The notes under the pieces: generated by a model | Told to the model about the DNA's origin: nothing | Databases searched by the model: none | The model's input: the letters and a program-made list of their open reading frames with translations, nothing else | Made by a program: the position numbers and the translations under genes | Source: Halorarum halobium | GTDB lineage: Archaea > Halobacteriota > Halobacteria > Halobacteriales > Haloferacaceae | Length of the DNA stretch: 34,620 bases | Assembly (NCBI RefSeq): GCF_032116555.1 | Contig: NZ_CP134950.1 | Location: 124,001 to 158,620, forward strand | Direction of reading: 5' to 3' | Shown here: positions 1-22,558 of the stretch, piece by piece | How positions within the stretch are numbered: position 1 is the stretch's first letter | Layout: each line of letters begins with the position of its first letter

Positions 1-1184
1 GGATAGTACCGACCCTCGTCTTTGCTGTAGAGGTAGGTCTGGATCGGTCTAAGAGTGTTTGAGTTTCGCCCGAAGAGAAAGGCGAGCCCCATCGGGCCAG
101 CTATGAAGAGATGAATAGTCGATGTTTTTGATAGTTCTTTGATTGCGTCTCGTACCTTGGTACGGAAAACACCTGCAGCATGGGCTGCCTGTGCCGGGGA
201 CAATTCCACACCAGGCCCATCTTCCGGTGTCAATCTGAGAATACCGTTGAAATCCGGAAGGTCGTTATGCATTTGGTCGATCTCCGGTTGCACATCGGCA
301 GCGATGTTGACGAGCACCGCCAGCTCCGCTCCGTGATTCGGTTGTCGCTGGAGATCTCCTTCTAACCCGCTTTCCTCTTCGTCGATATCGAGTCTCCATT
401 CTGTCATCCCGGCAGGACCGGTGGGTTGCATCCACGTTGCTTGGATACGACGTGTGGTTGGAAGACAGTAACCGGCCGCGAACGCAGCGGGAAGATGCGT
501 TCGGCCACGGAATCGGAGGGTGCGGCCCGATGCGTTTTGAATGAGACTGTCCGTTACCGTAGTTAACGCCGGGAGTAGACGCTGGTTCCATACTTCTTGG
601 GATGGTGGACCATGTTCGAACGATCTCGACCAGTCAATAGCAATCGCTGGATCGTTGTCGTGAGCGGGCGATTCGTAGGTATCAAGTGAACATTCGAGGG
701 GCTCACCGTCCGGCAAATACCCATCTATCCGCTCGATGCGCTCTGATAAGACGGCCTGGACGATCTCTGTAGCTTTGTCAGACGTGGTCTCCTCTAGGGG
801 GAGCATTTTCCAGGCGGAAAAGTCGTGGAGGATCGGTGCCTCGTTGAGTATCGATTTGGCTTCTCCAACGCTGATATCGGGACATGGCACAACGACCACG
901 AAAAACTCGTCATCCTCGTCCCAGCGCTTGTTGAATCCCGGCAACTCGTCGTTGAGAATGATGTCGGAGTCGGCTACGCCCTCACTGACGAGCGCAATAC
1001 CACTGGCCGTTTCCGGGTTCTCCAACTGGTCGATAATCTCATCTCTGAGTGGCTCTGGCTTCAAATCGAAGATATCCCGCCAAATCGGCACCCCGTGTCG
1101 CTCGAGTTCCGTTTGCAGGAAGTTGGCGATGTCCGTCTGTTCGTGCTTATAGCTGAGAAATACACGGCCAGTTGGATCAGTCAT
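1..1184 (-). CDS. CBASS effector, TIR-SAVED (3' end runs off the window)
   Basis: Translated by hand from ATG at 1184, which overlaps the upstream stop (ATGA). It reads MTDPTGRVFLSYKHEQTDIANFLQTELERHGVPIWRD (TIR start, FLSY...G.PIWRD), then SDIILNDELP (candidate catalytic Glu), then a C-terminal IHLFIAGPMGLAFLFGRNSNTLRPIQTYLYSKDEGRYYP (SAVED signature). About 394 open codons to the window edge. Confidence 0.9.
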   Translation of the reverse strand, partial: MTDPTGRVFLSYKHEQTDIANFLQTELERHGVPIWRDIFDLKPEPLRDEIIDQLENPETASGIALVSEGVADSDIILNDELPGFNKRWDEDDEFFVVVVPCPDISVGEAKSILNEAPILHDFSAWKMLPLEETTSDKATEIVQAVLSERIERIDGYLPDGEPLECSLDTYESPAHDNDPAIAIDWSRSFEHGPPSQEVWNQRLLPALTTVTDSLIQNASGRTLRFRGRTHLPAAFAAGYCLPTTRRIQATWMQPTGPAGMTEWRLDIDEEESGLEGDLQRQPNHGAELAVLVNIAADVQPEIDQMHNDLPDFNGILRLTPEDGPGVELSPAQAAHAAGVFRTKVRDAIKELSKTSTIHLFIAGPMGLAFLFGRNSNTLRPIQTYLYSKDEGRYY

Positions 1185-3517
1185 ATATCGTCACCGACGT
1201 TGAGAGTTGTAGCTGCATCTGGGTTGTCAATCCGTTCTAACTGCTCGTATTCCTTACTATCATGGAATAGATAGGCGTTGATCGTGAATTGACCTTCTTC
1301 GTCCTGTCCAACGATGAAGAGGAGCGGATGCGGACAGTCGTAGCCGTCGTCGTTGGCGATGTCATTCATCGCAGTCCGATCGACCCGACTGAGATCGGGT
1401 GAAGCGCCGGGATGGTAGTGCCATTCACCGAGATAGTCGATGCCAATGCTCTCCCTGGCGTCTTTGAGCCACTCCTCGACTTTGTCGGTTCCGCGGAGGA
1501 ATCGAGTTGGTTCTTGAATGGAGTCCCGCGGTGGGTCGCGGGCATTCACCACCAGTGCTGGCCCATCGAGACGGTCGGTTCCAGCGAGAATACCGCCCGT
1601 TTCACAGGGGTGTTCTTCCCGACAGCGCTCATACATCGCTTCAAGACACGTGGCCGGAATCTGTACGGTGATTGGTGATTCCGGTGCTCGCCATATAGTT
1701 CCGTCCTGGAAGGGAGGTGTGGCCTGTGAAATGGTCGGCAGCTCGTCGCCACTACCGGTCTCGAGTACGGTGAAGTGATTCTCGCGCAGGCTCAATGCCG
1801 TCGCCTGATCGAGAAGTCGTGTCACTGTCCCTGCCCACGTCATCACCCGGTCCGTTCGGATAACTGATGCTGGGTGCCAGCAGCCGACTCGCTCGGGGAT
1901 GGCATCCTCGTCTTCGTCCCATTCGATCTGTTCTTGCAACCGCCATGGATCGAACGCTTCGTTGTAATCGCTGTACGGAAAGGTATGTGAGTAAGCTGTG
2001 AAGCAGAACAACCGGCTCGCTCGCCGACCCATCGCAGCGGAGCAAAACACGACCGGGTGATTCCATCTAATCGCATCCAGAGCGCGACGAACTCCCCGTG
2101 ACGCGGTACAGTCAATTACTACCTCCGCTTCTCTAATTGACTCCGGCAACTCACCGCTCGGTGGAAAGGCGCTATCCACATCAAAGACTTGGGCGTACGG
2201 TGCAATGGATTCGAGCCGGTCCGCGATTGCTGTCGCCTTGTTTCGTCCTACCTCATCGATTGTTAGTGTGTGGCGAGCCACGTTGCCGATCTCATACGTG
2301 TCGTTGTCGACGATGGTAAGCTGCTGACAGCCGGCTCGAACGAGGTTCTCGGCAACCATACTGCCGAGCGCTCCCGCTCCAATGAGTACGATGTTGCGAT
2401 CCAGAAACCACTCTGTCATATGCCCGCGTCTGGTGAGCTGCTCATGCGACCAGTTGTCCGAGTCCAGCCACCGAATCTGTTCCTCTCCAGCTTCCCGTCG
2501 TTCGGCTATCTCTGGCCCCTTTCCAGTATCTCGAAATCCGCCGGAAAGGTCATTCGGGTCCTTGAACTCCTGGATCTCGATTGGTTGCCAATAAATGATC
2601 TCGGGGTCGCCGTCGACCGTAGCTGGGATGGGGAACCCGATTAGAAGAATCTTGACCGGTTCATCGTCCAAAACGGGCTTGATATTTGCCCGTAGTTCGT
2701 ACGGGTCGGTCTCGGTGCCATCGAAAAACCCTTCCAAATCTTGCCACGTTCCCGGGGCCTCCCACGGGGGTTCAATCGGCACCTCTTCTAACAGTGCCCA
2801 CGCTCCGGAAACAGAGTCCTCAGGATTCGCATCGATGTATCCACCCCATTGTGGCTGATAGACGACTTCATCGTCGCTATCTTTGAACGTACCAGTCGCG
2901 TATGTCTCTTCAGCAGTTGGCAACGAGCGGAGATTGACCGTCCCCCACTGTCCATACGTCTCCCTCCATTCTGAGAACGACTCCTGCGTCTCATTGAATG
3001 CGATGGTCGTGGCCGAAGCCGAGTTCGTATCGAAGGCCGGGATTTCAAACGGTTCGTCTGGTTCCCGGAGTTCCCCTTTCGCAGCATTACTTAACCACCG
3101 CAGTGCTCGGTCCATATGCCAACAGAGCCGATCACGGCTTGTGCTGGGTTCGCCGGTGGCTCCCGTTTGACTGAGGGTGTGCCCATACCGAGCAACACAG
3201 ATATCGCCTCTTCGCCATGGAGTATCGTTGCTCCCAGCCACGTTCAGCTTCTGGTGGGGGAATGTGGCGGAAATGGTGTTCTCTTCTTGATCTGCAGGGT
3301 AGATCCCAATTGAACCTGCGGGGTACGTATCCCGTAGATGGAGATACCAGTCCGTCTCGCGTGGCACGTCCGGATGGGGTTCTAAGTCGTCTGGAGAAAG
3401 CCTGATCTTGACGATCCACCGTCCGTTGCTATCGTGTCGATATGGCTCTTTGAGGACGGTGACTCCGTCCCGTTCGGCAATGGCTGCAACGGCTTCTGTA
3501 ATTTCGTGGGGAGGCAT
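1181..3517 (-). CDS. cap2/cap3: CBASS Cap2-Cap3 fusion: E2-like + ThiF/E1 + JAB (MPN+) isopeptidase
   Basis: N-terminal E2-like region (YP...FPHQ...GDICV). E1 nucleotide-binding motif IVLIGAGALGSMVAENLVRAG...D.D.YEIGNVARH, plus IDCTA and GCWHP. C-terminal JAB motif ETGG...YLGEWHYHPGASPDLSRVD (HxH-x7-S-x2-D). Lies 8 bp downstream of the CD-NTase. Confidence 0.9.
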   Translation of the reverse strand: MPPHEITEAVAAIAERDGVTVLKEPYRHDSNGRWIVKIRLSPDDLEPHPDVPRETDWYLHLRDTYPAGSIGIYPADQEENTISATFPHQKLNVAGSNDTPWRRGDICVARYGHTLSQTGATGEPSTSRDRLCWHMDRALRWLSNAAKGELREPDEPFEIPAFDTNSASATTIAFNETQESFSEWRETYGQWGTVNLRSLPTAEETYATGTFKDSDDEVVYQPQWGGYIDANPEDSVSGAWALLEEVPIEPPWEAPGTWQDLEGFFDGTETDPYELRANIKPVLDDEPVKILLIGFPIPATVDGDPEIIYWQPIEIQEFKDPNDLSGGFRDTGKGPEIAERREAGEEQIRWLDSDNWSHEQLTRRGHMTEWFLDRNIVLIGAGALGSMVAENLVRAGCQQLTIVDNDTYEIGNVARHTLTIDEVGRNKATAIADRLESIAPYAQVFDVDSAFPPSGELPESIREAEVVIDCTASRGVRRALDAIRWNHPVVFCSAAMGRRASRLFCFTAYSHTFPYSDYNEAFDPWRLQEQIEWDEDEDAIPERVGCWHPASVIRTDRVMTWAGTVTRLLDQATALSLRENHFTVLETGSGDELPTISQATPPFQDGTIWRAPESPITVQIPATCLEAMYERCREEHPCETGGILAGTDRLDGPALVVNARDPPRDSIQEPTRFLRGTDKVEEWLKDARESIGIDYLGEWHYHPGASPDLSRVDRTAMNDIANDDGYDCPHPLLFIVGQDEEGQFTINAYLFHDSKEYEQLERIDNPDAATTLNVGDDI

Positions 3518-3525
3518 TTGTTACG

Positions 3526-4650
3526 TCAGCTGTCCGACTCGGCGAACTGGTGGTCAGATGGATCCTCTACCTGTGAGGACGACCCTACTGACATGGCTTT
3601 CTCCCCTCCATCGTCGGAATCGTCGTCGCTTCCGAAGGGAGGGAATTTCTCACCGAAGAGCTGGTACCAGTAATCCCTCGATGTTTCTTTGTCCTCCTCA
3701 TCCAGTGCTGTCCGCGCGAGCGCTGCGGCATCTTCGGCCTTATCGTAGAACGCCGCGAAATCGTCCCCGTCGATTTGTTTGAGGACGTCATTCTCGGGGG
3801 TTTCCGGGAGCCCGTGAGCAGGCAAGACGGGGGTTTCCTCGGCCATTGCTTCGGTCTTGAACTGCCGTGTGAGTTCTTCCAGCGTCCTTGTCACGCCTTC
3901 AGCGACGCTGTCGATATCATGAGGACAGCACTGACCAACGATGTGCTCGAGGGGATAGCTTGTCGGTCCTTCGACGTCGGGTGTCTTCGTTCGCCGCCAC
4001 CATTTGATGGCTTTGACGACGTTCACGTAGTGGCCATCCGTGATATCGTTTTTATTAATGGTGAAGGCGATAGTCGCGAGGGGATGGGTATTCTCCCACT
4101 TGTTCTCATCTCGATGTGGGATCTTGAGCGGTTGGTCCTTCCACTCGTCGTCGCCATCTGCCGACATATTGAGGGCCTCCGCCACGGTCGAAAGGTCGTC
4201 TGGACTCAGGGCTGTGCCAACGTCTAGTGAACCCAGTGATTTGACGGCTTCACGTGTTGCCTCGCTCGGTGCCGCTGTCAAGACGAGATCGATCTCCACC
4301 TTCTCTTCCTCGATCTTGTAGGAGTGCGCGTTCGGTTCCCACTGCCCCACATAGTGTTCATCCAGGAACGGCTCGCATTTTCTTAGCGCAACATCGGTAT
4401 CGAGATCACTGCTGAGATCAGAGACAAAGACGACGTCAACGTCGGATTTCTCGTCTTCCTGCGGTCTGAGTGCCGTCCACCGACGGTAGCTCCCCTGTAG
4501 AAAGTCTGCAACGTAGAACTCGTCGATGTCCTCGTCACTCTGCAAGTGATCGCGGAGGGTTTCGTGGCCCTCCTTGTAGGCATCATTGTGCTCGTCCTGC
4601 GGGCGGATGTCTGACAAGAAGGTCTCGAACAGTGTGGGGAGTGTGGTCAT
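3526..4650 (-). CDS. cGAS/DncV-like nucleotidyltransferase (CD-NTase, SMODS)
   Basis: FLQGSYRRWTALRP...SDVDVV (GS...DxD), IDLV, LKIP, W..THP, VKAIKWWR, SYPLE, LFGEKFP. In an operon with E1/E2/JAB and TIR-SAVED genes. Confidence 0.93.
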   Translation of the reverse strand: MTTLPTLFETFLSDIRPQDEHNDAYKEGHETLRDHLQSDEDIDEFYVADFLQGSYRRWTALRPQEDEKSDVDVVFVSDLSSDLDTDVALRKCEPFLDEHYVGQWEPNAHSYKIEEEKVEIDLVLTAAPSEATREAVKSLGSLDVGTALSPDDLSTVAEALNMSADGDDEWKDQPLKIPHRDENKWENTHPLATIAFTINKNDITDGHYVNVVKAIKWWRRTKTPDVEGPTSYPLEHIVGQCCPHDIDSVAEGVTRTLEELTRQFKTEAMAEETPVLPAHGLPETPENDVLKQIDGDDFAAFYDKAEDAAALARTALDEEDKETSRDYWYQLFGEKFPPFGSDDDSDDGGEKAMSVGSSSQVEDPSDHQFAESDS

Positions 4651-8996: not shown

Positions 8997-10052
8997 ATGA
9001 GCTTGAATATCCCACTTCCTGCGGGTCTCGGGGACTATGCTTGGCTCGAAACTCTTGTTCAACGTGAAGAAATTGGTCAAACGATTCCTCTCTATATCGA
9101 AGCTGATGACGGGATTGAGGTCGTCGCTGTTTCCCTTCTCTGTGAAGATGATCTTCGGATGATCTACCGGGCACCTAATGGCTGGCAATTGCTCACAGAA
9201 TATGAGTTGTCCGAGGACCCGATTATTCACGTAGACGACCTCCTTGATGCTGTCGTTGCATTTGTGGGAACAGACGCGAGAGTTGTTCAAAAACTCGCTC
9301 AGGAACTCGGTGAGAAGTTAGAGGAGCATTGGAAGATGGGATTTGTTCCGTATAGTCAATCTGGGAAGGGGGACAAATTTGAGGAACTTAGACAGGACTG
9401 CAATTGCTCAGGGATTGACGACCCGTCAATTGAGCGTGTTCCGGGAATGTCCGAAATCGAGGAATCAGCAGAATTTCGCTGCCATAACTGTATGAGCTTA
9501 TATGGTATCGAGTATCAGGGTCGTAGAATCGATCTTGATGAGGTGTTCAGTGCTGAGTGGCTCTTCACGAATTCGACTCCGGATGACATCGTGGAGATCG
9601 GTGCCGAAGATTCATTTCTCGTATATTCTGATGGTCGACCAATAGACAAAACAGAACGAGTCATCGGCGCGATGACTAGCTATGGTGGTGACACGAGTTC
9701 TTCTTTTGCCCGATATATCCCTGAGAACCACCAGGGATTGCTCTATATTCGAGATGACGACGCGGCTGGATACGTCACTTGGGAAGAGCTGGATGGAATA
9801 CAGGTTCTTCGACAGCTGTATGTCCGGGATCATTACCGGCGCCGGGGGATTGCTGAGGAATTGATTCAGACTTGGTGCCAGGAGTACTGCGAGGATGGTG
9901 TCTACTACATCGACGAACCGAACGACAAGAGCCGATCTCTGTTTTCAAAACTGGGTCATATTGACGGTGACGGTGAGTACGAAGCGATCGAACTATACCC
10001 GATTCGCGGAGTCGGAAATAGTCTCGACGGTAGCCAGACTCTCCCTCAATAG
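8997..10052 (+). CDS. GNAT-family acetyltransferase with an uncharacterised, Cys-containing N-terminal region
   Basis: C-terminal LRQLYVRDHYRRRGIAEELI (acetyl-CoA motif A) and YIDEPNDKSRSLFSKLG. Central CNC...CHNC is a possible Zn ribbon. Confidence 0.75.
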   Translation: MSLNIPLPAGLGDYAWLETLVQREEIGQTIPLYIEADDGIEVVAVSLLCEDDLRMIYRAPNGWQLLTEYELSEDPIIHVDDLLDAVVAFVGTDARVVQKLAQELGEKLEEHWKMGFVPYSQSGKGDKFEELRQDCNCSGIDDPSIERVPGMSEIEESAEFRCHNCMSLYGIEYQGRRIDLDEVFSAEWLFTNSTPDDIVEIGAEDSFLVYSDGRPIDKTERVIGAMTSYGGDTSSSFARYIPENHQGLLYIRDDDAAGYVTWEELDGIQVLRQLYVRDHYRRRGIAEELIQTWCQEYCEDGVYYIDEPNDKSRSLFSKLGHIDGDGEYEAIELYPIRGVGNSLDGSQTLPQ

Positions 10053-10073
10053 TTCATCCACGCTCTCATCAAC

Positions 10074-10511
10074 TCAATCAGCCAGGTCTCGAATTCCCTC
10101 TACCACACTCTTTCCTTGCCAACCCACGATCTGATCTGCGTGGTCTTCAACGAAATTGGGCATCTGCTCGTTTCCGCGCGGTGTAACACCCAGAATAGGC
10201 TTGCTCTCGATTTCAGCTAAAATAGTTTCTTTCTTGATCCATTTGCTGTGTGCTACGTACATTCCCCCGAGTATTATTACGACCGTAGCTGGCTTGATCT
10301 GGTCTTCCCGGAGCGCCTGTTCCAGCTCCTCTTCGGTGTCAGCATCGATCTCATCCACCTTCGGTACTGAGTAGTTCCGGAAACTGAAATTCGGGTAGTC
10401 GCGAAGTAGTTCTACCATCCGATTGTACTCGTCGCTGTACTCCCAAGAGTGCGAGATGAACAGTCGGTATTCGCTCCGACGGTTGCTTGAAGATCTGCTG
10501 TTGAAGCTCAT
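10074..10511 (-). CDS. TIR-domain protein (ThsB/MTH538/DUF1863-like)
   Basis: YRLFISHSWEY...NYSVP...IKPATVVIILGG...SKWIKKE (catalytic Glu)...KPILGV...P..V...AD.IVGW. Confidence 0.88.
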   Translation of the reverse strand: MSFNSRSSSNRRSEYRLFISHSWEYSDEYNRMVELLRDYPNFSFRNYSVPKVDEIDADTEEELEQALREDQIKPATVVIILGGMYVAHSKWIKKETILAEIESKPILGVTPRGNEQMPNFVEDHADQIVGWQGKSVVEGIRDLAD

Positions 10512-10638
10512 AACTATATGCGAATTGTTGACGGCTTACCCGTTTAGTACTATGGTCCTCTCTGATGCGGAATCCAAATCTGCCGATATTCCAGGGGGAA
10601 GAACTTATACTATTTAAAAACGGATTGTTCATACGGTT

Positions 10639-11580
10639 ATGAGCCAAGACACCTCCTCCCCATTGAAAACCACCTGGGAGGCTGCGTTTGATGATATTCG
10701 TGGCAGTCCAAACCCCGAATCAGCTGTTCGATTCGTTCTGAAGTCAGCTGTTAACGATCTACCTACCGGATTCTATCGCGATGATGGAGACCGCCTACTG
10801 CCGACCTACAAAGGGAACGATCTCGGAAAGGAGTTCACCGTTCGAGAACTCGGCCCCGTTTATACAGTAACGCAATCTGGGGATAACAGTCTCCCTGAGC
10901 TCAGTTCCTCTCAACCATCGCTCTTCGAGCCGAATGACCAACAGTCGGGCCTTGTCCCGACCGACAATTCCCTGAGCCGCAGTTCTACCGACACTCAGAA
11001 CCAGCAGGGTCTCTCGTCTGGACAAAAAATCGCTGGCGGTGCTTTGCTCCTATATGCTGCCTACAAAGGGCTGGAAGCCTTTGCCTCTGCAGGCTCGTCG
11101 ACTCAAGAGTCCTCTTCCTCCTCAGGCGGAAATACTGGGCAATCACTCCCTCGCTTAGCACGCGCTGCAACTCGACTTGAGGACAAGCAGTACAACGTTT
11201 TTGTCTCCCACTCGTGGGAGTACGACGAACACTACGAGCGTATCGTTGATTTCCTTGATGAGGTTCCGTCGCTCAAGTGGCAGAATCATAGTGTCCCTTC
11301 AACTGACCCCCTGCCCGTGGATACCGAGTCTGCCCTTCGTTCTGAACTCCGGAACCAGATGAAAACGGCGTCGGTTGTCGTCGTAAGTAGTGGAATGTAC
11401 GGTGCTCACAGCACTTGGATCCCGGAGGAGCTGGAACTCGCCGATGAACTGGACAAGCCGGTGATCGCAATCATTCCAGAGGGACAATCGAAGGTCCCCG
11501 AGAAAATCCAAGAAGTCGCAGATACTCAGGTAGGATGGCGAAAGGCCTCGCTTGTCGACGCACTCGCTGAATATGCCTGA
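10639..11580 (+). CDS. TIR-domain protein (ThsB/MTH538-like) with N-terminal extension and putative single TM segment
   Basis: C-terminal YNVFVSHSWEY...NHSVP...ASVVVV...STWIPEE...KPVIAI...AD.QVGW. The hydrophobic stretch IAGGALLLYAAYKGLEAFA lies between Ser-rich linkers. Confidence 0.85.
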   Translation: MSQDTSSPLKTTWEAAFDDIRGSPNPESAVRFVLKSAVNDLPTGFYRDDGDRLLPTYKGNDLGKEFTVRELGPVYTVTQSGDNSLPELSSSQPSLFEPNDQQSGLVPTDNSLSRSSTDTQNQQGLSSGQKIAGGALLLYAAYKGLEAFASAGSSTQESSSSSGGNTGQSLPRLARAATRLEDKQYNVFVSHSWEYDEHYERIVDFLDEVPSLKWQNHSVPSTDPLPVDTESALRSELRNQMKTASVVVVSSGMYGAHSTWIPEELELADELDKPVIAIIPEGQSKVPEKIQEVADTQVGWRKASLVDALAEYA

Positions 11581-12343
11581 TTCAACCGACGAAGCGGCGG
11601 TTGATCTCTCAGAGGATGGCGCCGATACTGACGATGGAGACACGCCCGAAACAGAACCTGAACACTCTGAAGAGGTCACTGGAGGGGACCCTGCTGAGCC
11701 ATCTGAGGAGGAAGATGTTACAACTGGACCGCTGGCTAATCTAAGTGAGGACGAGAAGAATCGACTGATGGAGCAGTACATACATTACGGGGAGGTTGCG
11801 ATCGAGACAGCCAATCAGCGAGTCCAGATGAACCGCTTTTTCGGTCTGATTTTAACCTCGATACTGGCCGGTCTCTTTGCTCTCGCCCGCGGCAATCTCA
11901 CAACCACTAACGCTGCGATCGTTCTCTTCGCATCAGGATTCGGCAGTCTGATTTGCTACTTCTGGTATCAGAGTCTTCAATCATACCGCCGGCTGAACAA
12001 AGCTCGATACGCCATCCTGAATGAGATCGAGTCGGTCCTGCCTGTTCGTATGTATCTCGATGAATGGCGATATTTGAAGCGAGAGAAGCCTGACCCGGAA
12101 ATCGTTGATCCCCGTCCAGCTGAAGATGCTGACCACCGCTCACATACGATTGTGGAACAGTGGTTCGTCCGCCTATTGGCTGCTGGATACATATCTGTCG
12201 GAGGGTATGCCGGAGGATTCATTTTTACTCCCCAAGTGAAGAGGTTCATCCCATCACTGCCGGACCCATCGGTGGTTGGTTTTGGTGTTGGTGGCGTCCT
12301 CTTGCTCGGCTTAGCTATCCTCTTTAGGATTCAAACCCGCTGA
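11573..12343 (+). CDS. 4-TM membrane protein, putative pore-type effector (resembles the RipA-like octameric membrane protein family)
   Basis: Likely start ATG 11573 overlaps the TIR stop. Acidic disordered N-terminus, then QY...R...NRFF-TM1-TM2-ICYFW...SYRRLN.ARY.ILNEIE..LP.....EW, then two more TM segments. The family call is from recalled motifs. Confidence 0.65.
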   Translation: MPDSTDEAAVDLSEDGADTDDGDTPETEPEHSEEVTGGDPAEPSEEEDVTTGPLANLSEDEKNRLMEQYIHYGEVAIETANQRVQMNRFFGLILTSILAGLFALARGNLTTTNAAIVLFASGFGSLICYFWYQSLQSYRRLNKARYAILNEIESVLPVRMYLDEWRYLKREKPDPEIVDPRPAEDADHRSHTIVEQWFVRLLAAGYISVGGYAGGFIFTPQVKRFIPSLPDPSVVGFGVGGVLLLGLAILFRIQTR

Positions 12344-12350
12344 GAATACT

Positions 12351-12572
12351 ATGAGACGCTTCGAAACCGGTGATTCGGTCCGAATCGATATCCCGGACGA
12401 GACAGATCCAGATCACGAGCGCCTCCATGGACGTCGAGGAACAGTCGTTGAGATCATCTCAGACGATGCGGGGGCTGTGACTGATGATCAACGAGAGGGC
12501 TATCTTTTTCGGGTTAAAATCGCTAATGGTGACACCGTTGACGTCCGCTGGCGGGATCTTCGGCCAGTTTGA
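12351..12572 (+). CDS. Small KOW/SH3-like beta-barrel protein
   Basis: 73 aa, FETGDSVRI...HGRRGTVVEI...FRVK...DLRP. Starts 7 bp after the membrane protein gene. Confidence 0.65.
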   Translation: MRRFETGDSVRIDIPDETDPDHERLHGRRGTVVEIISDDAGAVTDDQREGYLFRVKIANGDTVDVRWRDLRPV

Positions 12573-12651
12573 TTGGCTATTGTCTGGTGCTATTTCTGTA
12601 GGGAGGTCACTAAACACTAAGTTCGCGTACTGAATACATCTCTGCATTACG

Positions 12652-15600
12652 ATGCTCTCACTTCCTCCGCTTGTCGATAACGCTAACAGAACACTAGAAG
12701 ACGCTTACAAGCGGATTATTCCTCAGATCGAGGAAGGCCGTATCGCAACTGGCTACTTTTATCTCTCAGGATTTGACCTCTACCGGGAAGACCTTGAAAA
12801 CCTGGCTGACCCCGATGAGCTCGGCCACGCTCCGCTTCGGATTTTGATGGGCCGTCAGACGAATAGGGGAACTGCTGACGAAATCGGTGAGGGACAGAAT
12901 CTCAAAGAGGAGCTCAAAAGAGAGGTGAGAGAAAGCATCTCGGAGCTGAATAACGCTCAAATTGGCCGACTAGACCGGCTACGAGACTTTATCGCCGAAG
13001 GCGAGGTGAGCGTCCGTGTGCGAAATCCTGAAAACGGTTACTTCCACGCAAAGGGTGCCTCATTTCGAGCGCCACTCGAAGATGACGAAGATTGGGGACA
13101 AGACGAGGATGAAGACACCCGCCCATGCGCTACAGTTGTCGGCTCCTCGAACTTCACCAAGAGCGGCCACCAGAACAACATCGAGCTGAACCTCACGAGT
13201 CAGGATCGACACAAGGCCGAAGCGTTCGAGGAGTGGTACGACAACCAGTGGGCCAACGCCGAGGAGTTCAGTGAAGAGATCATCCGAATCATCGAGAACA
13301 GCGAGGAGTACCAGGACTGGAAGGAACAGCAGGAGGACGAGTCCGACCAGGAGACGTCATCTGAGGAGCTGGGCACGTATCTCGAACCGTTCGAGCTCTA
13401 CAAGCTGCTCGCCTACGACGAACTGAGTGGGAACGTCAACATCCGTGACAGCCCACTGTACTACTTCCAGAAGCTCGGGTACGAGAGTGCAAAGGAAAAG
13501 CTTTCACAGTTCAACGGGTGCATCGTCTCCGACTCGGTCGGCCTGGGGAAATCATTTATTGGCGGTGAACTCCTCCACGACTACCGCCAACGTGGCGACC
13601 ACTGTCTCCTCATTGTCCCGGCAAACCTGACTGATCAGTGGGAAGACCTACTCCAGAACGACACTGACGAAGACGGCAATCCGTACTTCGGGTTAGAGGT
13701 AGACGGCACGCACCTTGACGTGATGAGTATCAGCAAGTTCCAGAATCTCTCCTACGACGAGGTGCAGGACCTCAAAGACGAGTTCGACGTCCTGCTTATC
13801 GACGAGGCTCACCGGTTCCGGAACTACGGGAAATGGCGACCGAATCCGGACCACGATGATGACTACAAGGGGACGCGACGACACGCGAATCTCAGGCAAC
13901 TCCGCGGAAAGACGATGATTATGCTGACCGCGACCCCGATTAATAACAGCGCTACCGACCTAAAGAACCTCATCAGCTTGTTCACCAGCCCGGAGGAACT
14001 TCGGAACAAGGCGTCACTCGACTTTGATGCGTTCGACGAATATATCGAACTCTCGGAGACGCGAAAACGCATCGCATCCGGGAAAGAGGAGGTCGGCGAC
14101 GACGAACAGCAAGAAATCACCGAGCAGCTCCAGCGACACTCCTCTGAGATTTCGAATATCCTGAACGAAGTGATGGTTCTCCGGACGCGCAAGCACGTCA
14201 AAGATCAGATTCAGGACAGCGAAGACTTCGAGATGAGCTTCAAGCCGCCGAAACTCAACAAGCAACAGTACTCCCTGCCGGCGGCCTACCAGCCAATATA
14301 TCGGATGCTTCCCGACGTGATGGACGCCCTCCACCTTCCCCACATCACAGTCAAAAATCCGAAAGCAGGGAGCACGCTGAAAGCCCTCTACAAGCTGAAC
14401 CTCCTCAAACGGCTCGAGTCCTCAACGTACGCGTTCGTCCAGTCGATCGAGACGCTGCATCAGAGCGAACGCCAGCTTCTCGGCCTTCTTGGTGAACTCC
14501 CTGAGGACGAAGATATCGATATGCTCCGAACTGTTCGGGAGGGAGATGACTCTGAACTCGGTGACTTTGTCGAAGGAGCCGACGCTGCTGAAGATCTCGA
14601 ACAAACACTCGAAGAATTTGGTTTCGATACCACCGCTATTCAATCGGAAGAAGGAGCTGATACCGAGGGAGATGAACTGGCAGACGCCACCATCGGCGAG
14701 GTGAAGACGTACATTAGGGAGGACCTCACTCTTCTATCGTATTTCCTCTCGCAGTTCATCGGTGATGTCGCCCGGGATGCGGGTGATGTGAGTGATTATG
14801 CGGTTTCCACGCGGCAATGGCTCGCTGACCACGACGCTGGTGTCCTCCCAGATATTCCTGAAGAAGAGATGAATCCGATTCTCTACCCGAATAGTGACTT
14901 GAGCGAAGTCGACCCTGCCACACGCGACTTTTACGAGGCCGTCTTTTCACTCCGCGAGTTCCGCGACCCGAAGATCGACCGACTTGCAGATGTCCTCACG
15001 AATCACGATCAGAAGGTGCTCATCTTCACGCAGTATCGGGCAACTGCAGACTATGTCTATCGAACCCTCTGTGACAACGAGGATTCACCACTCACAGAGG
15101 CGAACAGTGCCGTCGTCAAGGGCGGTGACGAGAATAAGCAGGACATCATTCAACGCTTTGCACCCGAAGCGTCAGGCTACCAGCAAACGCTCGCCGAGTC
15201 GGGGGACTCAGAGCTACAGTACGTAGTGGCCACTGACACGCTGAGTGAAGGGGTTAATCTTCAGGACGTTCATGTGGTGGTCAATTACGACCTGCCGTGG
15301 AACCCGATGCGGATTGTCCAGCGTGTCGGGCGAGTCGACCGGATCGGGAGTACCGCCGAGAAACACGTCCACAACTTCTACCCGGACGGCGACATCGAGG
15401 CGGCGATCAAGCTCCTGAAACGCCTACAGGCAAAGATCAACGATATCGCGCTCATTGTCGGAAAGGAGAACAACATCCTTGATCCGAACGAAGATCAGGT
15501 TCTTGAAAAGACAGGTGTAGATACGGAGAAGACTATCGGGGAATTACAGGTGGACGAGATCGAGGACTCTCTCCAGAAGTCTCGTGAAATTGACGACGTG

Positions 15601-16466: not shown

Positions 16467-18772
16467 CTACGGTAGGGGCCCCTTCTGATCCAGTAAATCA
16501 TATTTCTCCAAGACCAGATCGAAGTACATCTCGTCCATCAGCTTCGGATTCTCAACGCGATGGAAGTCGTCGAGGACAAACTTCACGTCACGACGTTCCA
16601 GGCCATACGCGTGGAATGCGGCCGCATCGATTTCAGCCTGTAATTCTCTGCGTTCTTGATCTTCTACCGCTGCCTCGATTCCGCCGAGTCGCTTACGCAT
16701 TTCTTTGAATTCTTTCCCGTAACAGTTCAATCGGGCAGCTCGTTCAGCGATATAATGGAACCAGTCATCTCCGTCGGTGAGCCGTGGTAGCTGGGATTCC
16801 AATAGCTCGCGCTTGACGATGTGCGTCTCGACTTTAGTTCGCATCAGGAAATCGAACGCAATGCTGTTCAGGAGTCCCGTTGCCACGAAGAGTTCTTGAT
16901 CCGTAAATCGCCGGACGTAGGGTGACCGAAGTGGGGACTCTGTGAGGTGTTCCTCTTTAGGCTCAATAGCGAACGGCTTGAACGTGTTAATGGTGTGGAG
17001 ACAGATGACGTCCTTCGGAAGTACCGTAGCAATTATCGTCCGCTCGTCCCGGGATCGAGAAACGTCTCGAATGCCGATTCGGTATTCAGTGCAATCGAGC
17101 AGGACATCTTCTTCCTCAAGTCCGTGACTACGGTGTTCTTCGAGTAGTTCATCTACGTATTGAACTTGAGACTTGCTCGTCTCTGAACCTCCAAAGGCGT
17201 CGTAGATTGCTCGTTTGAGGTTCCCCCGGTTGAATTTTTTCTCTCGAACACGGTACTGGGCACTATTCGGTGGATCGTACATCCCCCGACTCCAATACCG
17301 GGGGTTGTCCAAACTCTCTGTGTGGGTATTATCGTGTTCGAATTGGTGGATGTTCGCACCCCCATATACTGGATAATCAGCATTATCAGGGGAATCTTGC
17401 AATCGGTCTTTATCGGTGGACTCGACGAATTCTTTCGTCAACATATCCACAGACCAAGCACCTCCGATATTCTCATCTAGAGGTGGTTGAGTGACTACCT
17501 TGCTGAGGACATCGGCTTCGACTTGTGATGTGATCGAGGGGAAAATTCTACCCTCGGGAGAATAATTGAGAAGCACTTGTCGTGGGATTTCTGCGGCCAC
17601 GTCCTCGATATTATAGACCACGTCCATACTCCGTTGATTGAAAATACCTCGGAGTCGACTGGTCCTTCCACCATACTCAAATGTCAGAATTGCAAATCGG
17701 TACTGCCGATGTATCTGCTCAAAGATTCCCTTATTTTCGAATCCGATGAGGTTCTCTATGTCTGTGTGATCCAGTAGATGCGTTCGGAGGTCTTTCCCCA
17801 TCACTCCCCCGAAGATAGTCCCCGGGAGGAGCAGACTCACCTTCACGCCGTCTCTGGAGAGTCTGAATACCCGCTCAAGAAATAGAGCCGAAAGTTCGTT
17901 CTTTGTCGGCATCGTTCGACCCCCCACCACCGGAGATTGGAGCTTATAGACATCTCCCTGCGTGAAGAAGTCTGCCTGAGTTTCCATCGATTCCTTGTAG
18001 TCCTCCCATTCCCACGCAACTTCAGGGCTTGAGAGGAGTTCTTCCATCACACCATCTTTTTCCTCCGACGGATAGGTACGGAACTGCTCATCGTAGCGGA
18101 TGAAGAAGTCGTCGCGATTCGCGTAGAGCATGTCCCACGGCGGGTTCCCGATGAACACGTCGAATCCACCTCTCTCGAAGACATCGGCGAACTCCAACGG
18201 CCAGTGGAAGGGGGACCACTCCCGAATTTCCTCGATCGTTATGTCGTCAAAGCCAGCGTCTTGAAATTCTCGCTGAAGGATTTCATCAAATTTGTCCCGG
18301 TGTTCCTCTATTCTGTCTTCTGCCTCCTTCCGCCATTCTTGAGCTCAATACTGGTCTCCGCTTTCTTGTGCTTCTTGATGGCCTCTTTCACGTCCTCAAA
18401 ACGAGTTTTCACTTCCCAAGAATCGAGATCGCTGTCTCCGTCTTCGTTACTTTCGATGTCCGTATCGAGTTGACCAATTAGGCTGTTGCCCTGTCGTACG
18501 TTGAAATCGATGTTGGGGAGCGGCTCCACCTCGCTCGGTTCATCCTCGATATCAGCGACCATCGACAACCAGAGCCTGAGCTTGCAAATCTCAACAGCAC
18601 CTTCGTCGATATCGACTCCGTACAAATTGTTGAGTATGGCCGTTCGCTTTGCGTACAGTGATGAGGAGCCTTTTCCAGACTCGATTTCCTCAATCTCTTC
18701 TCGCGTTCTGGATTCTAGCTCCCAGCCTTGCCCTTCAGCTTCGAGCCGCTGGAAATACTCAATGCATTGCAT
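16467..18772 (-). pseudogene. Silent alternative C-terminal cassette (catalytic NPPW + target-recognition region) of the Eco57I-like methyltransferase, with a 1-bp frameshift at ~18344
   Basis: Starts at MQCIEYFQRLEAEGQGWELES, identical to an internal part of the 18935-22558 gene, and lacks that gene's N-terminal ~435 aa including motif I. ORFs 18308-18775 and 16467-18197 join if one base is added at ~18344 (giving SIEAQEWRKEAEDRIEE...SPFHWPLEFADVFERGGFDVFIGNPPW). Colinear with the full gene to its end. Confidence 0.88.
18717..18772 (-). repeat. 56-bp perfect inverted repeat, left copy (putative inversion site)
   Basis: Its reverse complement, ATGCAATGCATTGAGTATTTCCAGCGGCTCGAAGCTGAAGGGCAAGGCTGGGAGCT, is identical to 20240-20295. 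Confidence 0.95.
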
Positions 18773-18934
18773 CAACTGAGCGTCTCGCTATTGGCTGTTT
18801 TCGACTTGATTTACGAATGCTCGTGAAATGCGAGCTGCTTCTTGCATACTACGCAACGGGAGGATTGACCAGTTCAGTCGAAAGTCACCCTCGTATCCAT
18901 CATTTTCATATGAGTAAAGCAACTTTCAGGTGGT

Positions 18935-21900
18935 ATGACTCTCCAGCAGATCACCGCATCCGATATCGCGGGCTGGGACTCTTTACAGGATATAGCGAAC
19001 TCCTTTGAAAAACGCGGGCTCAAACCACGCCCGAAACTTGGGGGCGATAACGAACTCGTAGTCCAGCTTGATGATGACGAATTCATCGTCATCGTCAATG
19101 CTGGCCCCGGTGAGACTGCCACGGACTTCAAACCGGAAAATCGCTCACGGCATACCAACCTCGTTGCCACCAACGATTTCGAGACCTTCACCTTCATTAC
19201 GCGAGTCCGAAGCTGGGAGGGGCAGCAGCACGGTCGAATTAAGCATCAAAAGATTTCGTTCTCGAAGGAGCAGTTCACGCGGGACAGCGGAGAGAAGAAC
19301 ACTATTCTCCAGAAGCTGAACTCGATCGAGTACGGTTCCTCTGCTGCGATATACGATACGCTCTACGACACGCAACAGGTCGTCAAAGAGTTTTATGAAC
19401 AGTTCGAGGAACTCCGGACGGATCTCATTCAAGAGGTCACGGGCATTCCCGACGACCGTGGTGACGCGAAGCAACGATATGTGCAGGTCATTCTTGACCG
19501 GATGATATTCCTATACTTCATCCAAGAAAAGCGCCTCCTTGATCGGAACCCGAACTACCTTCACGAACAGCCGAATGAAGTCGTTGACGAGGGCGGTGAC
19601 CACTACGAAGAGTTCTACGAACCGCTCTTCTTCGAATACCTCGCAGAAGACAAGCAGAACCCTGATTTCGGTAGTCTTCCGTACTTGAACGGTGGCTTGT
19701 TCGCAAGGAATCCTGTCGAAGAGGAGTTCCAGGACGCGAAGTTAGGTGGCCCTGCCGAGAAAACGAACGAGCTCTTCGACGATATCCTCGACTTCCTCTC
19801 CGACTGGAACTGGAACGTAGACGAACGACTCGATATCGTCGATCCCAAGAACCTCTCCCCAGCGATATTGGGCCACATCTTCGAGCAAACGGTCAATCAG
19901 AAGGAGATGGGGGCGTACTACACACCGGAAGAAATCACGGGGTTCATGGCCCGACGGACGATCCATCCATATCTGCTCGATCAACTCAACGAGGCTGTGG
20001 ACGCAGACTACGACGAGATCGACAATGTGTTCGGATTCCCCGTGCCCGAGGCAGATAGTAGCGCAGGAGCTGTTGCCGATGGTGGAACTATAACTCAGCA
20101 AGTTCCAACGGGAAACGTCCAGACCAGCCATGTGGAGACTCTATACCACGACATTCTGAAGGAAGCACACATTCTCGATCCCGCCGTAGGAAGTGGCGCC
20201 TTCCTGCTCGCCGCACAGGAGGTGCTGATGGACCTATACATGCAATGCATTGAGTATTTCCAGCGGCTCGAAGCTGAAGGGCAAGGCTGGGAGCTGGAGA
20301 GTCGTAGTCGTGAGGAATTAGAACGTATCGAGGGTGGGCATGGTGGGGAGTCGCTATACGCCAAACGCTCGATTATTCTGGATAATCTCTACGGGGTGGA
20401 TATCGACGAGGGCGCTGTGGAGATCTGTAAACTCCGTTTGTGGCTCTCGATGGTTGCGGATATCGAAGACGAGCCAGGGGAGGTCGAACCGCTCCCGAAT
20501 ATTGATTTCAACATACGGCAGGGGAACAGTCTAATTGGATTTACAGATCTCATCGAAACCGTCAATGAACAGGGTGATACCTCACTCACAAACTATGGAA
20601 TCGGTGAAGAAACACCGGTTAGCGAGTATTATGAGGACGTAATCCACGCTCAGCGGAAACACAAACGGGCAAATTCCTCAAAAGAAGCAACCAACGCCCG
20701 TCGTCAGGCAGAGTCGCTCATCACCAGCTACAGTCAGAATCTGGACAACAAGGTGCTAGATGAGTTCCATAATGCCGGCGCTGAAATCACTCTGGATCAA
20801 GTTCAAGAATTCCACCCCTTTCATTGGATTCTCGAATTCGCGCTAGTCTACGACCAGGGAGGTTTTGATCTTATTATCGGGAATCCTCCTTGGGACCAGC
20901 TTCGAGCGAGTCGCGATGATTACTTCGTCAAGTTTGATGAGCAGTTCCGGTCCCGGATGCCTTCGAATAAGGACGAGATGCAGAAACAGCTGCTGGAAGA
21001 CGAGGAGATTGCCGAGGGATGGGAGGAGTATCAAGAGCAGATAGAGAAGCAAATGCGGTACTTCACTGATGGTTCTGAATACATCCTCCAGAAACCTGTT
21101 ATTGATGGACGGAAGGATCCAAATGAAAACAATCTTGCGGCACTCTTCTTTGAGAGATTGTTCGAACTCGTGAGCGACGAGGGGTATGTAGCGCAAGTTC
21201 TACCCGGAGTGATCTTCAGTGGCTCTTTCTCGAAAGATCTCCGGATGAAACTTTTGAATGATGCGGAAATACAGTCGTTGGTTGGCTTCGAGAATCATGG
21301 AATATTCGGTGATCTTCATCGACAGTATCAGTTCGCTGTTCTCACGTTCAAGAACCAGGGGGAGTCGGAGCAAATCAAGGGAATATTCGATCAACATGAT
21401 GTTTCTGTCCTCCGTCATTTCGACGAAAAAGCGGTTGAGATCCCACGAGAAGTACTAACCCAATATTCGTTGAAAGCGCGGATATTCCCCAATATTACCC
21501 ATCCTGAGGAAGTGGGTATCTTGGAGAGTATTGTCTCACACCCTCCGTTGGGAGAAAAAATCGACAATAAATGGAACGTCACTCCGCACCGTGAACTGGA
21601 TCGATCACGGGCGTCTGACCGCTTCGTCGAAGAGGAAAATGAAGGTGACTACCCTGTGTACGGTGGAGCAAACATTCACCAGTTCCAGCACGACAATACG
21701 TTCGATTCGAGTCTTGATTCCCCTTCACTATGGAGTGTCGATGAAGATCAGCCTGATCTGAGCGCTAAATACCGTGTTCGGGAACGGGCGTACAACGGTG
21801 GAACGCCGAAAAAGGACATATACGAAGCGTTTGGTGGACCGAAGACCAGCAAATCACAGAAGGGATTCGTCAACGATCTTCTTCAGGAACACCGTGGACA

Positions 21901-22558
21901 GGACCTCTGTATGGATGACCTCCTTCCAGACTTCACGGAATACCGGATTATCTACCGAGATATCGCCCGACCTACCGACGAACGGACAATGATTTCGACT
22001 GTGTTACCCAAAGGGCTCGTTTGTGTTCACACACTCCAGACATTTTCGCCATATGAAGTCAATCCGGAGCAGGACGATCTCTCAGAGTATCCCCTGCGTT
22101 CAATCTATGAACGTGCCTACGATGACAAGGAACTGTTCGTCATCACCGGTTTACTGAACAGCATTCCGTTCGATTACCTAATGCGGACGAAGGTCGATTC
22201 ACACATTGTCCGGTTCAAACTGGAAGAATCACAGGTCCCGCGTCTCACAGAGGGCGACAACTGGTTCCACTATATTTCTGACCGGGCGGCCCGACTCAAC
22301 TGCTACGGTAAGGAGTTCGAGGAGATGCGGGAACGGCTCGGCGGAATTGATCCCGCTAAAGAGGAATCAGAGCGTCGGCGACTTCAGGCCGAAGTTGATG
22401 CAGCTTCTTTCCACGCCTACGGACTCGATAGGGAGGAAATGCAGTTCGTTCTTGATGACTTTCATCGGGTGTCGAATCCTCGAATTATGACGGAAGCGTA
22501 CTTCGAGAAGGTCGCTGAGAAATACACTCATCTTGGAGACGTAGGGCCAATGGAGTAA
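18935..22558 (+). CDS. Eco57I-like (type IIG-like) N6-adenine DNA methyltransferase with C-terminal specificity region
   Basis: PYLNGGLF, ILGHIFE, GAYYTP, motif I ILDPAVGSGAFL, NLYGVDI, LPNIDFNIRQGNSLIG, motif IV GFDLIIGNPPW, and a C-terminal TRD-like region (YRDIARPTDERTMI; LNSIPFDY). Confidence 0.92.
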   Translation: MTLQQITASDIAGWDSLQDIANSFEKRGLKPRPKLGGDNELVVQLDDDEFIVIVNAGPGETATDFKPENRSRHTNLVATNDFETFTFITRVRSWEGQQHGRIKHQKISFSKEQFTRDSGEKNTILQKLNSIEYGSSAAIYDTLYDTQQVVKEFYEQFEELRTDLIQEVTGIPDDRGDAKQRYVQVILDRMIFLYFIQEKRLLDRNPNYLHEQPNEVVDEGGDHYEEFYEPLFFEYLAEDKQNPDFGSLPYLNGGLFARNPVEEEFQDAKLGGPAEKTNELFDDILDFLSDWNWNVDERLDIVDPKNLSPAILGHIFEQTVNQKEMGAYYTPEEITGFMARRTIHPYLLDQLNEAVDADYDEIDNVFGFPVPEADSSAGAVADGGTITQQVPTGNVQTSHVETLYHDILKEAHILDPAVGSGAFLLAAQEVLMDLYMQCIEYFQRLEAEGQGWELESRSREELERIEGGHGGESLYAKRSIILDNLYGVDIDEGAVEICKLRLWLSMVADIEDEPGEVEPLPNIDFNIRQGNSLIGFTDLIETVNEQGDTSLTNYGIGEETPVSEYYEDVIHAQRKHKRANSSKEATNARRQAESLITSYSQNLDNKVLDEFHNAGAEITLDQVQEFHPFHWILEFALVYDQGGFDLIIGNPPWDQLRASRDDYFVKFDEQFRSRMPSNKDEMQKQLLEDEEIAEGWEEYQEQIEKQMRYFTDGSEYILQKPVIDGRKDPNENNLAALFFERLFELVSDEGYVAQVLPGVIFSGSFSKDLRMKLLNDAEIQSLVGFENHGIFGDLHRQYQFAVLTFKNQGESEQIKGIFDQHDVSVLRHFDEKAVEIPREVLTQYSLKARIFPNITHPEEVGILESIVSHPPLGEKIDNKWNVTPHRELDRSRASDRFVEEENEGDYPVYGGANIHQFQHDNTFDSSLDSPSLWSVDEDQPDLSAKYRVRERAYNGGTPKKDIYEAFGGPKTSKSQKGFVNDLLQEHRGQDLCMDDLLPDFTEYRIIYRDIARPTDERTMISTVLPKGLVCVHTLQTFSPYEVNPEQDDLSEYPLRSIYERAYDDKELFVITGLLNSIPFDYLMRTKVDSHIVRFKLEESQVPRLTEGDNWFHYISDRAARLNCYGKEFEEMRERLGGIDPAKEESERRRLQAEVDAASFHAYGLDREEMQFVLDDFHRVSNPRIMTEAYFEKVAEKYTHLGDVGPME
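20240..20295 (+). repeat. 56-bp perfect inverted repeat, right copy, inside the methyltransferase gene
   Basis: Identical to the reverse complement of 18717-18772. Contains the palindrome CAATGCATTG (20243-20252). Lies just downstream of motif I. Confidence 0.95.

Follow-up and report, generated by a model that had tools for sequence, protein, structure and literature searches.

A predicted Thoeris-like module of two ThsB-type TIR genes and an 8xMP membrane protein gene in Halorarum halobium

The DNA analysed here (the window; 34,620 nucleotides, positions 124,001 to 158,620 of Halorarum halobium contig NZ_CP134950.1, renumbered from 1) carries two divergent genes for ThsB-type TIR proteins, TIRa and TIRb, and a gene for a membrane protein of the 8xMP family. 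The coupling of thsB to 8xMP is a real, conserved module, and this pair is dominant among haloarchaeal ThsB loci. The module is probably a Thoeris-like anti-virus system in three parts, the enzymes TIRa and TIRb and the 8xMP protein of the membrane. This reading is based on the gene identities, the intact catalytic glutamates, the conserved thsB-8xMP coupling and the defence-island setting. The features of the locus are as follows.

10074-10511, minus strand: TIRa, ThsB-type TIR protein of 145 amino acids
10512-10638: divergent spacer between TIRa and TIRb, 127 bp
10639-11580, plus strand: TIRb, ThsB-type TIR protein of 313 amino acids with an N-terminal extension
11029-11088, plus strand: Gly/Ala-rich stretch in TIRb (approximately residues 131-150), before the TIR domain
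11573-12343, plus strand: 8xMP membrane protein of 256 amino acids, PF24838
12351-12572, plus strand: KOW/SH3-like gene, 73 amino acids

Proteins of the module

Both TIR proteins have the conserved domain PF08937 (ThsB_TIR) at scores over the cut-off (TIRa E-value: 1.1e-13; TIRb E-value: 3.2e-10, residues 188-284), and TIRa also matches the PADLOC ThsB model (E-value: 5e-13). The best solved relative of both by sequence is MTH538 (PDB 1EIW; TIRa E-value: 1.7e-5, TIRb E-value: 2.9e-6). The two proteins are approximately 40% identical over the TIR domain. In the TIR alignment, the glutamate at the catalytic position is E95 in TIRa and E264 in TIRb. The initial annotation had described two divergent ThsB/MTH538-type TIR genes separated by a 127-bp spacer, and the coordinates, domain scores and relation to 1EIW agree with this; the TIR motifs that it quoted are present in the translations, and the catalytic glutamate is kept in both proteins as it had stated. 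TIRa belongs to the MTH538-like 'SHSW' clade and is predicted to be a second sensor and signal synthase.

The TIR domain of TIRb begins at approximately residue 185 and is preceded by an extension of some 180 residues that the initial annotation had not reported. This N-terminal part had no family match in the profile scan and no usable match in the Atlas. A hydrophobic stretch precedes the TIR domain in all 14 long haloarchaeal TIRs examined; it is Gly/Ala-rich and weakly to clearly hydrophobic, and the extensions of these proteins differ among themselves. The best 17-residue hydropathy of the N-terminal part is 1.04 in TIRb and ranges from 0.9 to 2.6 across the long haloarchaeal TIRs. The stretch at approximately residues 131-150 of TIRb is possibly a membrane-attaching helix.

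The membrane protein, previously given no family name, has the conserved domain PF24838 (8xMP; E-value: 6.8e-26, 91.1 bits against a curated cut-off of 30). The database label of its relatives is 'RipA family octameric membrane protein'. The start is assigned to the ATG at 11573, where homologues begin (an alternative in-frame TTG lies at 11552), and the gene thus overlaps TIRb by 8 nucleotides. Four hydropathy segments are found (residues 89-107, 114-132, 201-219 and 233-251), such that the earlier description of a gene with four transmembrane (TM) segments overlapping the plus-strand TIR gene is borne out, with a weak third segment. Among 143 aligned relatives, 85 have three TM segments, 52 have two, four have one and two have four. 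Because few relatives score four segments, the fourth helix can be regarded as a lineage-specific addition to a three-helix core. The window protein is a PF24838/RipA family member with two extras, this helix and an acidic N-terminal tail. The PF24838-type family has at least 1,769 representatives (clusters at 50% identity, E-value threshold 0.001), most of them 140-200 amino acids long.

In the AlphaFold2 model, a disordered acidic N-terminus (residues 1-50) is followed by a long helix running into TM1, by TM2 continuing as a cytoplasmic helix, and by a loop, TM3 and TM4. The core is modelled with a predicted local distance difference test (pLDDT) score of 93.8 and a predicted template modelling (pTM) score of 0.84. 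A conserved acidic motif lies in the disordered segment in the long haloarchaeal forms. The best-conserved positions (R83, N87, W131, Y138, N142, K/R145, E153, E164, W165 and E195) hold polar or aromatic residues at the borders of the membrane helices, an arrangement that would be consistent with a ligand site between subunits. Foldseek returned no matches for 8xMP against the PDB at an E-value of 0.001 and none against viral models. A wide structural search returned generic helix bundles (best Z 11.7, inside the range expected for helical models), and the Atlas search returned unnamed clusters, all under 0.9. The single weak match obtained when PDB sequences were searched with a profile (MSL10, E-value: 0.0085) was not used, and no PADLOC model was significant for the window 8xMP (best E-values: 0.017-0.037). 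A four-copy complex prediction scored 0.26 against a mark of 0.42 and is no evidence either way. Francisella RipA, the putative namesake of the family, is a homo-oligomeric inner-membrane protein (PMC4322802). The 8xMP protein is predicted to be the effector of the TIR module.

The spacer contains a TATA-like run from 10613, 26 nucleotides ahead of the TIRb ATG, which may serve as an archaeal TATA box for a transcript without a leader. A sigma-70 promoter scan, using a model ill-suited to archaea, gave chance-level results. Ratios of nonsynonymous to synonymous substitution (dN/dS) of 0.02-0.10 against the nearest non-identical relative tested indicate purifying selection on all four genes of the feature list; for the KOW/SH3-like gene, the ratio against one close copy is 0.37. 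An independent public contig (run X19) spans positions 9000-12654 unbroken with 26 differences. Contigs from RNA libraries (runs X1, X7 and X6) cover TIRa, TIRb and 8xMP partially and at low depth; DNA carry-over is possible in these, and they are not taken as a sign of expression.

Linkage of thsB and 8xMP

The haloarchaeal sample comprised 401 Halobacteria genomes, of which 25 score over the PF24838 cut-off, 24 of them strongly; the genome studied here is one of the 24. A ThsB gene lies upstream of 8xMP on the same strand at all 24 strong loci. The two genes overlap or are separated by 5 bp or less at 19 loci and are approximately 210 bp apart at the other five. Six weaker PF24838 loci (L025-L030, one marginally over the cut-off) had neither a TIR gene nor a match to the 8xMP profile and were excluded from the 24; control DUF2270 loci likewise had no TIR gene (0/30). 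At least two TIR genes lie within 1.5 kb at 11 of the 24 loci. They are divergent, as in the window, at six and tandem or convergent at the others, and the two-TIR divergent layout emphasized in the initial annotation is therefore not a defining trait. These linkage counts describe a pattern among related genomes and carry no statistical test.

The same association is seen from the TIR side. PF08937 matches occur in 113 of the 401 Halobacteria genomes and are strong (best E-value no higher than 1.1e-12) in 40, of which 24 have 8xMP. Another 17 strong haloarchaeal ThsB loci carry a different three-TM family (11 loci) or, judged by eye, a SLATT-like gene (six loci).

The pair also extends beyond the haloarchaea. 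A ThsB-type TIR gene lies within 600 bp of 8xMP at 41 of the best 80 of 559 GTDB matches, which are bacterial with some archaeal, and at 31 of the 61 that have full flanks. Among 13 bacterial plasmid loci (of 32 matches), eight have a ThsB-type TIR gene within 3 kb. A search of a phage collection gave a single record, itself a plasmid that was already known from the other searches. One representative (P0183) is a weak ThsB-8xMP fusion (TIR E-value: 0.003, below the cut-off). Two different TIR subclades are coupled to 8xMP, and beside this ThsB family the same slot is elsewhere occupied by other effectors (SIR2-STALD, Macro, SLATT or caspase). The family of the 4-TM protein is thus tied to TIR genes in other genomes, a linkage that the initial annotation had proposed to check. 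The designation of the system as archaeal in that annotation is too narrow, as the same pair is found in many bacterial phyla. That these genes lie together by chance in a densely packed defence island is scarcely credible: the region does contain many unrelated defence genes, but the constant same-strand position of thsB upstream of 8xMP in the 24 haloarchaeal loci, the two TIR subclades and the presence in multiple phyla largely refute it.

Two further gene arrangements were observed at 8xMP loci. An open reading frame (ORF) of 75-87 amino acids lies between thsB and 8xMP at L016, L019, L020, L022 and L023. It resembles part of an 8xMP helix joined to the C-terminal end of a TIR, and is probably a recombination scar. 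At L197 and L198, the gene after a divergent 8xMP is small and has weak nucleoside deoxyribosyltransferase/TIR-like matches; it possibly encodes another signal-maker for the 8xMP family.

Relation to known Thoeris types and candidate signal

A FastTree tree was constructed from 106 TIR domains of the fetched loci, all of which retain the catalytic glutamate. Both window TIRs fall in an MTH538-like clade with most 8xMP-linked TIRs. This clade also includes two caspase-linked TIRs (L228 and L232) and two SLATT-linked TIRs (L230 and L235). Other TIRs linked to 8xMP, from bacteria, make up a second group, into which the two TIRs of L233, a caspase locus, also fall; one of these two has its glutamate at residue 79 (hand count), as in PsTIR E79. 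The TIRs found beside SIR2-STALD, SLOG and the other three-TM family form a separate clade (support 0.99).

A recent survey by Yirmiya et al. names 29 putative Thoeris types and reports the verification of types V-XI; types V and IX make 3' cyclic ADP-ribose (3'cADPR), as type I does, and the TIR signals of types V, VI and VII act on effectors that are small membrane proteins or form rings and that have no known ligand domain (bioRxiv 10.64898/2025.12.03.692087). A pore-type effector lacking a recognisable ligand-binding domain, put forward as a new principle in the initial annotation, is therefore already established.

Type V (ThsB with ThsF/DUF2270, signalling by 3'cADPR) shares with the module a ThsB TIR and a small three-TM effector in which no ligand domain is recognised; a ring model of ThsF is given in the same preprint (bioRxiv 10.64898/2025.12.03.692087). 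The window 8xMP differs in belonging to PF24838 with no PF10028 match, and the type I-like clade does not include the window TIRs. An alignment of 8xMP with haloarchaeal DUF2270 was not significant (hhalign: 1.8%, E-value: 0.027, colinear over 87 columns), whereas the other ThsB-linked three-TM family gave 48% (E-value: 1.8e-4) against DUF2270 and 5.7% against 8xMP. Identity of 8xMP with ThsF had been suspected from Bacteroidota counts, PF10028 being found in 1 of 301 genomes versus 17 for PF24838; the profile comparisons and the TIR tree made it less probable. Judged from the comparison with DUF2270, the other three-TM family is a likelier candidate for ThsF than 8xMP is. This family (L215, L217 and L245-L255) has no significant Pfam match, lies beside type I-like ThsB in Bacteroidota and Halobacteria, and has relatives on 129 plasmids by protein search. 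A HIT-like gene, recognised by eye, adjoins the ThsB and three-TM genes at four haloarchaeal loci (L248 and L250-L252).

Type VII (ThsB with the SLATT protein ThsH, signalling by cyclic ADP-ribose, cADPR) likewise has a membrane effector, and SLATT-linked TIRs share the clade of the window TIRs. The 8xMP core has a faint similarity to SLATT_1 (E-value: 0.049), as do 9 of 144 family members at an E-value of 1 or less, but its 14 bits fall short of the cut-off of 26.3, and no SLATT or DUF4231 match exceeded its cut-off. The SLATT effector has two TM segments and the 8xMP core three. Haloarchaeal ThsB genes with a SLATT-like gene (type VII-like; L256-L261) are accompanied by a conserved pair of unannotated genes. 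Types I and II (SIR2-SLOG ThsA and TM-Macro effectors, respectively) have in common with the module the ThsB family and the presence of several TIRs per locus. No STALD, Macro or caspase match was found in the genes adjoining the module, in line with the earlier statement that no SIR2-SLOG, TM-macrodomain or caspase effector is adjacent. Genome-wide searches for STALD, ThsA_Macro and DUF4231 also found none, with controls that were silent. Type IV (TIR with caspase, signalling by N7-cADPR; available text of bioRxiv 10.1101/2024.10.24.620036) shares TIR clades with the module, and 8xMP occurs beside type IV-like caspases, but the window has no adjacent caspase and its effector candidate is a membrane protein. 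Judged from the sequence of its effector, the module is not of type I, II, IV or VII.

The TIR-8xMP pair may be among the 29 putative types of the survey (bioRxiv 10.64898/2025.12.03.692087). We lean slightly towards the view that the mechanism proposed here has already been catalogued, either as a verified type (IX with ThsJ, or V with ThsF) or as one of the putative types. The pair is common (41 of the 80 GTDB loci), and a survey of 600 million proteins would likely have met it. On the other hand, the terms PF24838, RipA, 3TM and 4TM are absent from the main text of that preprint, which gives no description of ThsJ either; the match of 8xMP to DUF2270 is poor and the other three-TM family fits DUF2270 better; and types V and IX make the type I signal, while the window TIRs stand apart from the SIR2-linked clade. 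The available part of PMC13069673 does not mention 8xMP. Literature searches on 8xMP, RipA, ThsJ, ThsF and type IX, with subscription journals mostly uncovered, found no description of a TIR-8xMP pair, and a search judged by abstract openings found no Thoeris study in haloarchaea.

A caspase gene adjoins 8xMP at nine of the best 80 GTDB loci (L108, L116, L118, L123, L125, L127, L133, L147 and L176). At L101, too, 8xMP adjoins a type IV-like caspase gene with no ThsB gene in the flank examined, and a response-regulator-like gene is found just upstream at five loci. The 8xMP-linked caspases are 34-48% identical over their full length to ThsB-linked caspases, which have the catalytic cysteine at position 129, like PsCaspase C129; they are called type IV-like from context, length and cysteine position. 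PsTIR E79 and PsCaspase C129 are the reference positions of type IV Thoeris in the available text of bioRxiv 10.1101/2024.10.24.620036. One plasmid has the gene order caspase-TIR-8xMP-TIR. No caspase was found in the H. halobium genome, in a search with a positive control, or in the flanks of the 24 haloarchaeal 8xMP loci (0/24).

Co-occurrence, as of ThsH with ThsI, is treated as pointing to a common signal in bioRxiv 10.64898/2025.12.03.692087. N7-cADPR is the first candidate for the signal of the module because its TIRs mix with caspase-linked TIRs and 8xMP occurs beside type IV-like caspases. Given the proposed mechanism, N7-cADPR is the signal at slightly less than even odds. Canonical cADPR, the type VII signal, is the second candidate and clearly less probable, and another or new isomer has a slightly better chance than cADPR.

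Several observations weigh against the Thoeris-like reading. No ThsB-type TIR gene is found near 8xMP at 39 of the 80 GTDB loci and 5 of the 13 plasmid loci. In the Bacteroidota sample, 16 of 18 places over the PF24838 cut-off lack an adjacent ThsB-type TIR gene (it is adjacent at two); one TIR_2 gene and two possible TIR-like genes are found among the places without ThsB, and several places represent another PF24838 subfamily. The haloarchaeal loci are related, many by recent common ancestry, and the 24 are not independent events. The namesake of the family in the databases, Francisella RipA, has been given a role outside defence (PMC4322802). The nine caspase-8xMP loci have no ThsB-type TIR gene in the flank examined (one has a TIR_2 gene), and proteolytic activation therefore fits them as well as a shared ligand does. 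SLATT-linked TIRs occur in the clade of the window TIRs, and the tree therefore does not fix the signal. Lastly, the TIRs of unverified pairs may be NAD-depleting effectors (available text of bioRxiv 10.64898/2025.12.03.692087).

Two alternatives were weighed. The roles could be reversed, with 8xMP as a membrane sensor and the TIRs as effectors that, once brought into contact or clustered, deplete nicotinamide adenine dinucleotide (NAD+) and make no diffusible signal. The possible membrane-attaching helix of TIRb, the weak TIR-8xMP fusion and the occurrence of 8xMP next to genes for effectors (caspases and CAP12-type TIRs) would suit this arrangement. It is nonetheless improbable, as the window TIRs are of the PF08937 ThsB type rather than the CAP12/Pycsar type and fall on the tree among TIRs whose partners are known effectors, and the sole partner of 8xMP in many loci is a short TIR without the extension. 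Alternatively, 8xMP could be a dormant pore that opens in a gasdermin-like manner on proteolysis or on direct contact with a protein, the acidic N-terminus serving as a latch and the TIR link reflecting shared type IV ancestry. The nine loci with a caspase and 8xMP but no ThsB, together with the disordered N-terminus and its conserved acidic motif in long haloarchaeal forms, point this way. With no caspase in the haloarchaeal 8xMP flanks, none found in the H. halobium genome and no long N-terminus in most family members, we give this explanation little weight. A TIR-driven membrane effector, as proposed in the initial annotation, appears to be the best reading of these sequences.

Surroundings of the module and working model

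The 73-codon ORF that begins 7 bp past the 8xMP stop had been described as a KOW/SH3-like component of the system. The spacing and the ORF were confirmed; the label depends on sub-threshold matches (Tudor E-value: 0.038, L21e E-value: 0.011). It is hardly likely that this protein is a true fourth component acting as a sensor, adaptor or inhibitor. Its proximity to 8xMP would be expected of such a component, and it follows 8xMP at 9 of the 24 loci, but it is absent from the other 15, where the sequence available downstream is never shorter than 1281 bp. Among 201 genomes of haloarchaea, 79 carry the gene, and 25 of its best 30 loci have neither a TIR gene nor 8xMP; elsewhere its neighbours, judged by eye, are restriction, helicase and integrase-like genes. 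DNA identity was compared gene by gene at eight loci, two further loci being near-identical throughout. Relative to the window, L016, L019, L020 and L022 are 77-80% identical in 8xMP, 90-96% in KOW and 94-98% in the next gene, while L014 and L017 are 91-94% identical in 8xMP and 75-84% in KOW, with an unrelated next gene. At L037, similarity to the window starts at the KOW gene and continues onward, without the TIR module. Because the KOW gene is common without TIRs and its identity tracks the downstream gene and not 8xMP, it is, on this comparative evidence, a passenger with no part in the TIR module. The gene resembles an element that marks junctions in the islands of haloarchaea.

The window forms the end of a 158,620-base contig that has 58% GC versus 68% in the main contig; close protein relatives carry Halobacteria names. 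The window is a defence island that encodes a CD-NTase-like protein with a Cap2/Cap3-like fusion, GmrSD and a PLD-SNF2 helicase, as well as type IIG restriction genes, an integrase and a SIR2 protein. The module is flanked by the genes for a GNAT protein and the PLD-SNF2 helicase, and the CD-NTase-like gene lies more than 5 kb away in its own operon; the surroundings of TIRa and TIRb are not those of a CBASS, Pycsar, Argonaute or STAND effector. The 351-amino-acid GNAT protein (8997-10052, plus strand; C-terminal GNAT domain) is encoded convergently with TIRa across a 21-bp gap, and its gene is retained beside TIRa in two near-identical relatives. The CBASS-like operon (1-4650, minus strand) runs beyond the left edge of the window (123937-128650 of the contig). 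It encodes a SMODS nucleotidyltransferase, a Cap2/Cap3-like fusion of E2, E1 and JAB parts, and a 415-amino-acid protein with a TIR-like start, as judged by eye. Two regions resemble type IIG restriction-modification genes (16467-18775, minus strand, split into at least two ORFs; 18935-22558, plus strand). A 574-amino-acid SIR2-domain protein (30007-31731, plus strand) scores over the cut-off for SIR2_2 alone and has no STALD match.

A working model for the TIR-8xMP module, drawn from Thoeris biology, can be outlined. On infection, a TIR protein would sense a viral cue and convert NAD+ into a cyclic ADP-ribose isomer. The isomer would bind between the subunits of an 8xMP ring, at R83, N87, Y138, N142, R145, E153, E164 and W165, and the ligand-bound 8xMP would open or damage the membrane and so halt the infected cell. 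The two TIRs, at 40% identity, would probably broaden the range of viruses sensed, and TIRb may be anchored at the membrane by its extra helix. The KOW gene would have no role. A more specific version, which we consider rather unlikely, is that the module is an unnamed Thoeris type, commonest in haloarchaea, in which N7-cADPR directly gates a RipA-family ring and a membrane-held TIR senses membrane-bearing archaeal viruses. N7-cADPR is not so far known to activate anything other than a caspase.

The present analysis adds to the initial annotation the dominance of the pair among haloarchaeal ThsB loci, the removal of the KOW gene and a connection to the type IV signal that can be tested, with the direct prediction of a second receptor for that signal. 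The model involves no new principle, signal-gated membrane effectors being already established in Thoeris. If right, it assigns a role to the large 8xMP family, whose biochemical function is not known, and describes a compact three-gene system that is testable in Haloferax. The more specific version with N7-cADPR, if true, would supply a first biochemical function for the family and the first archaeal TIR-signalling system to be worked out.

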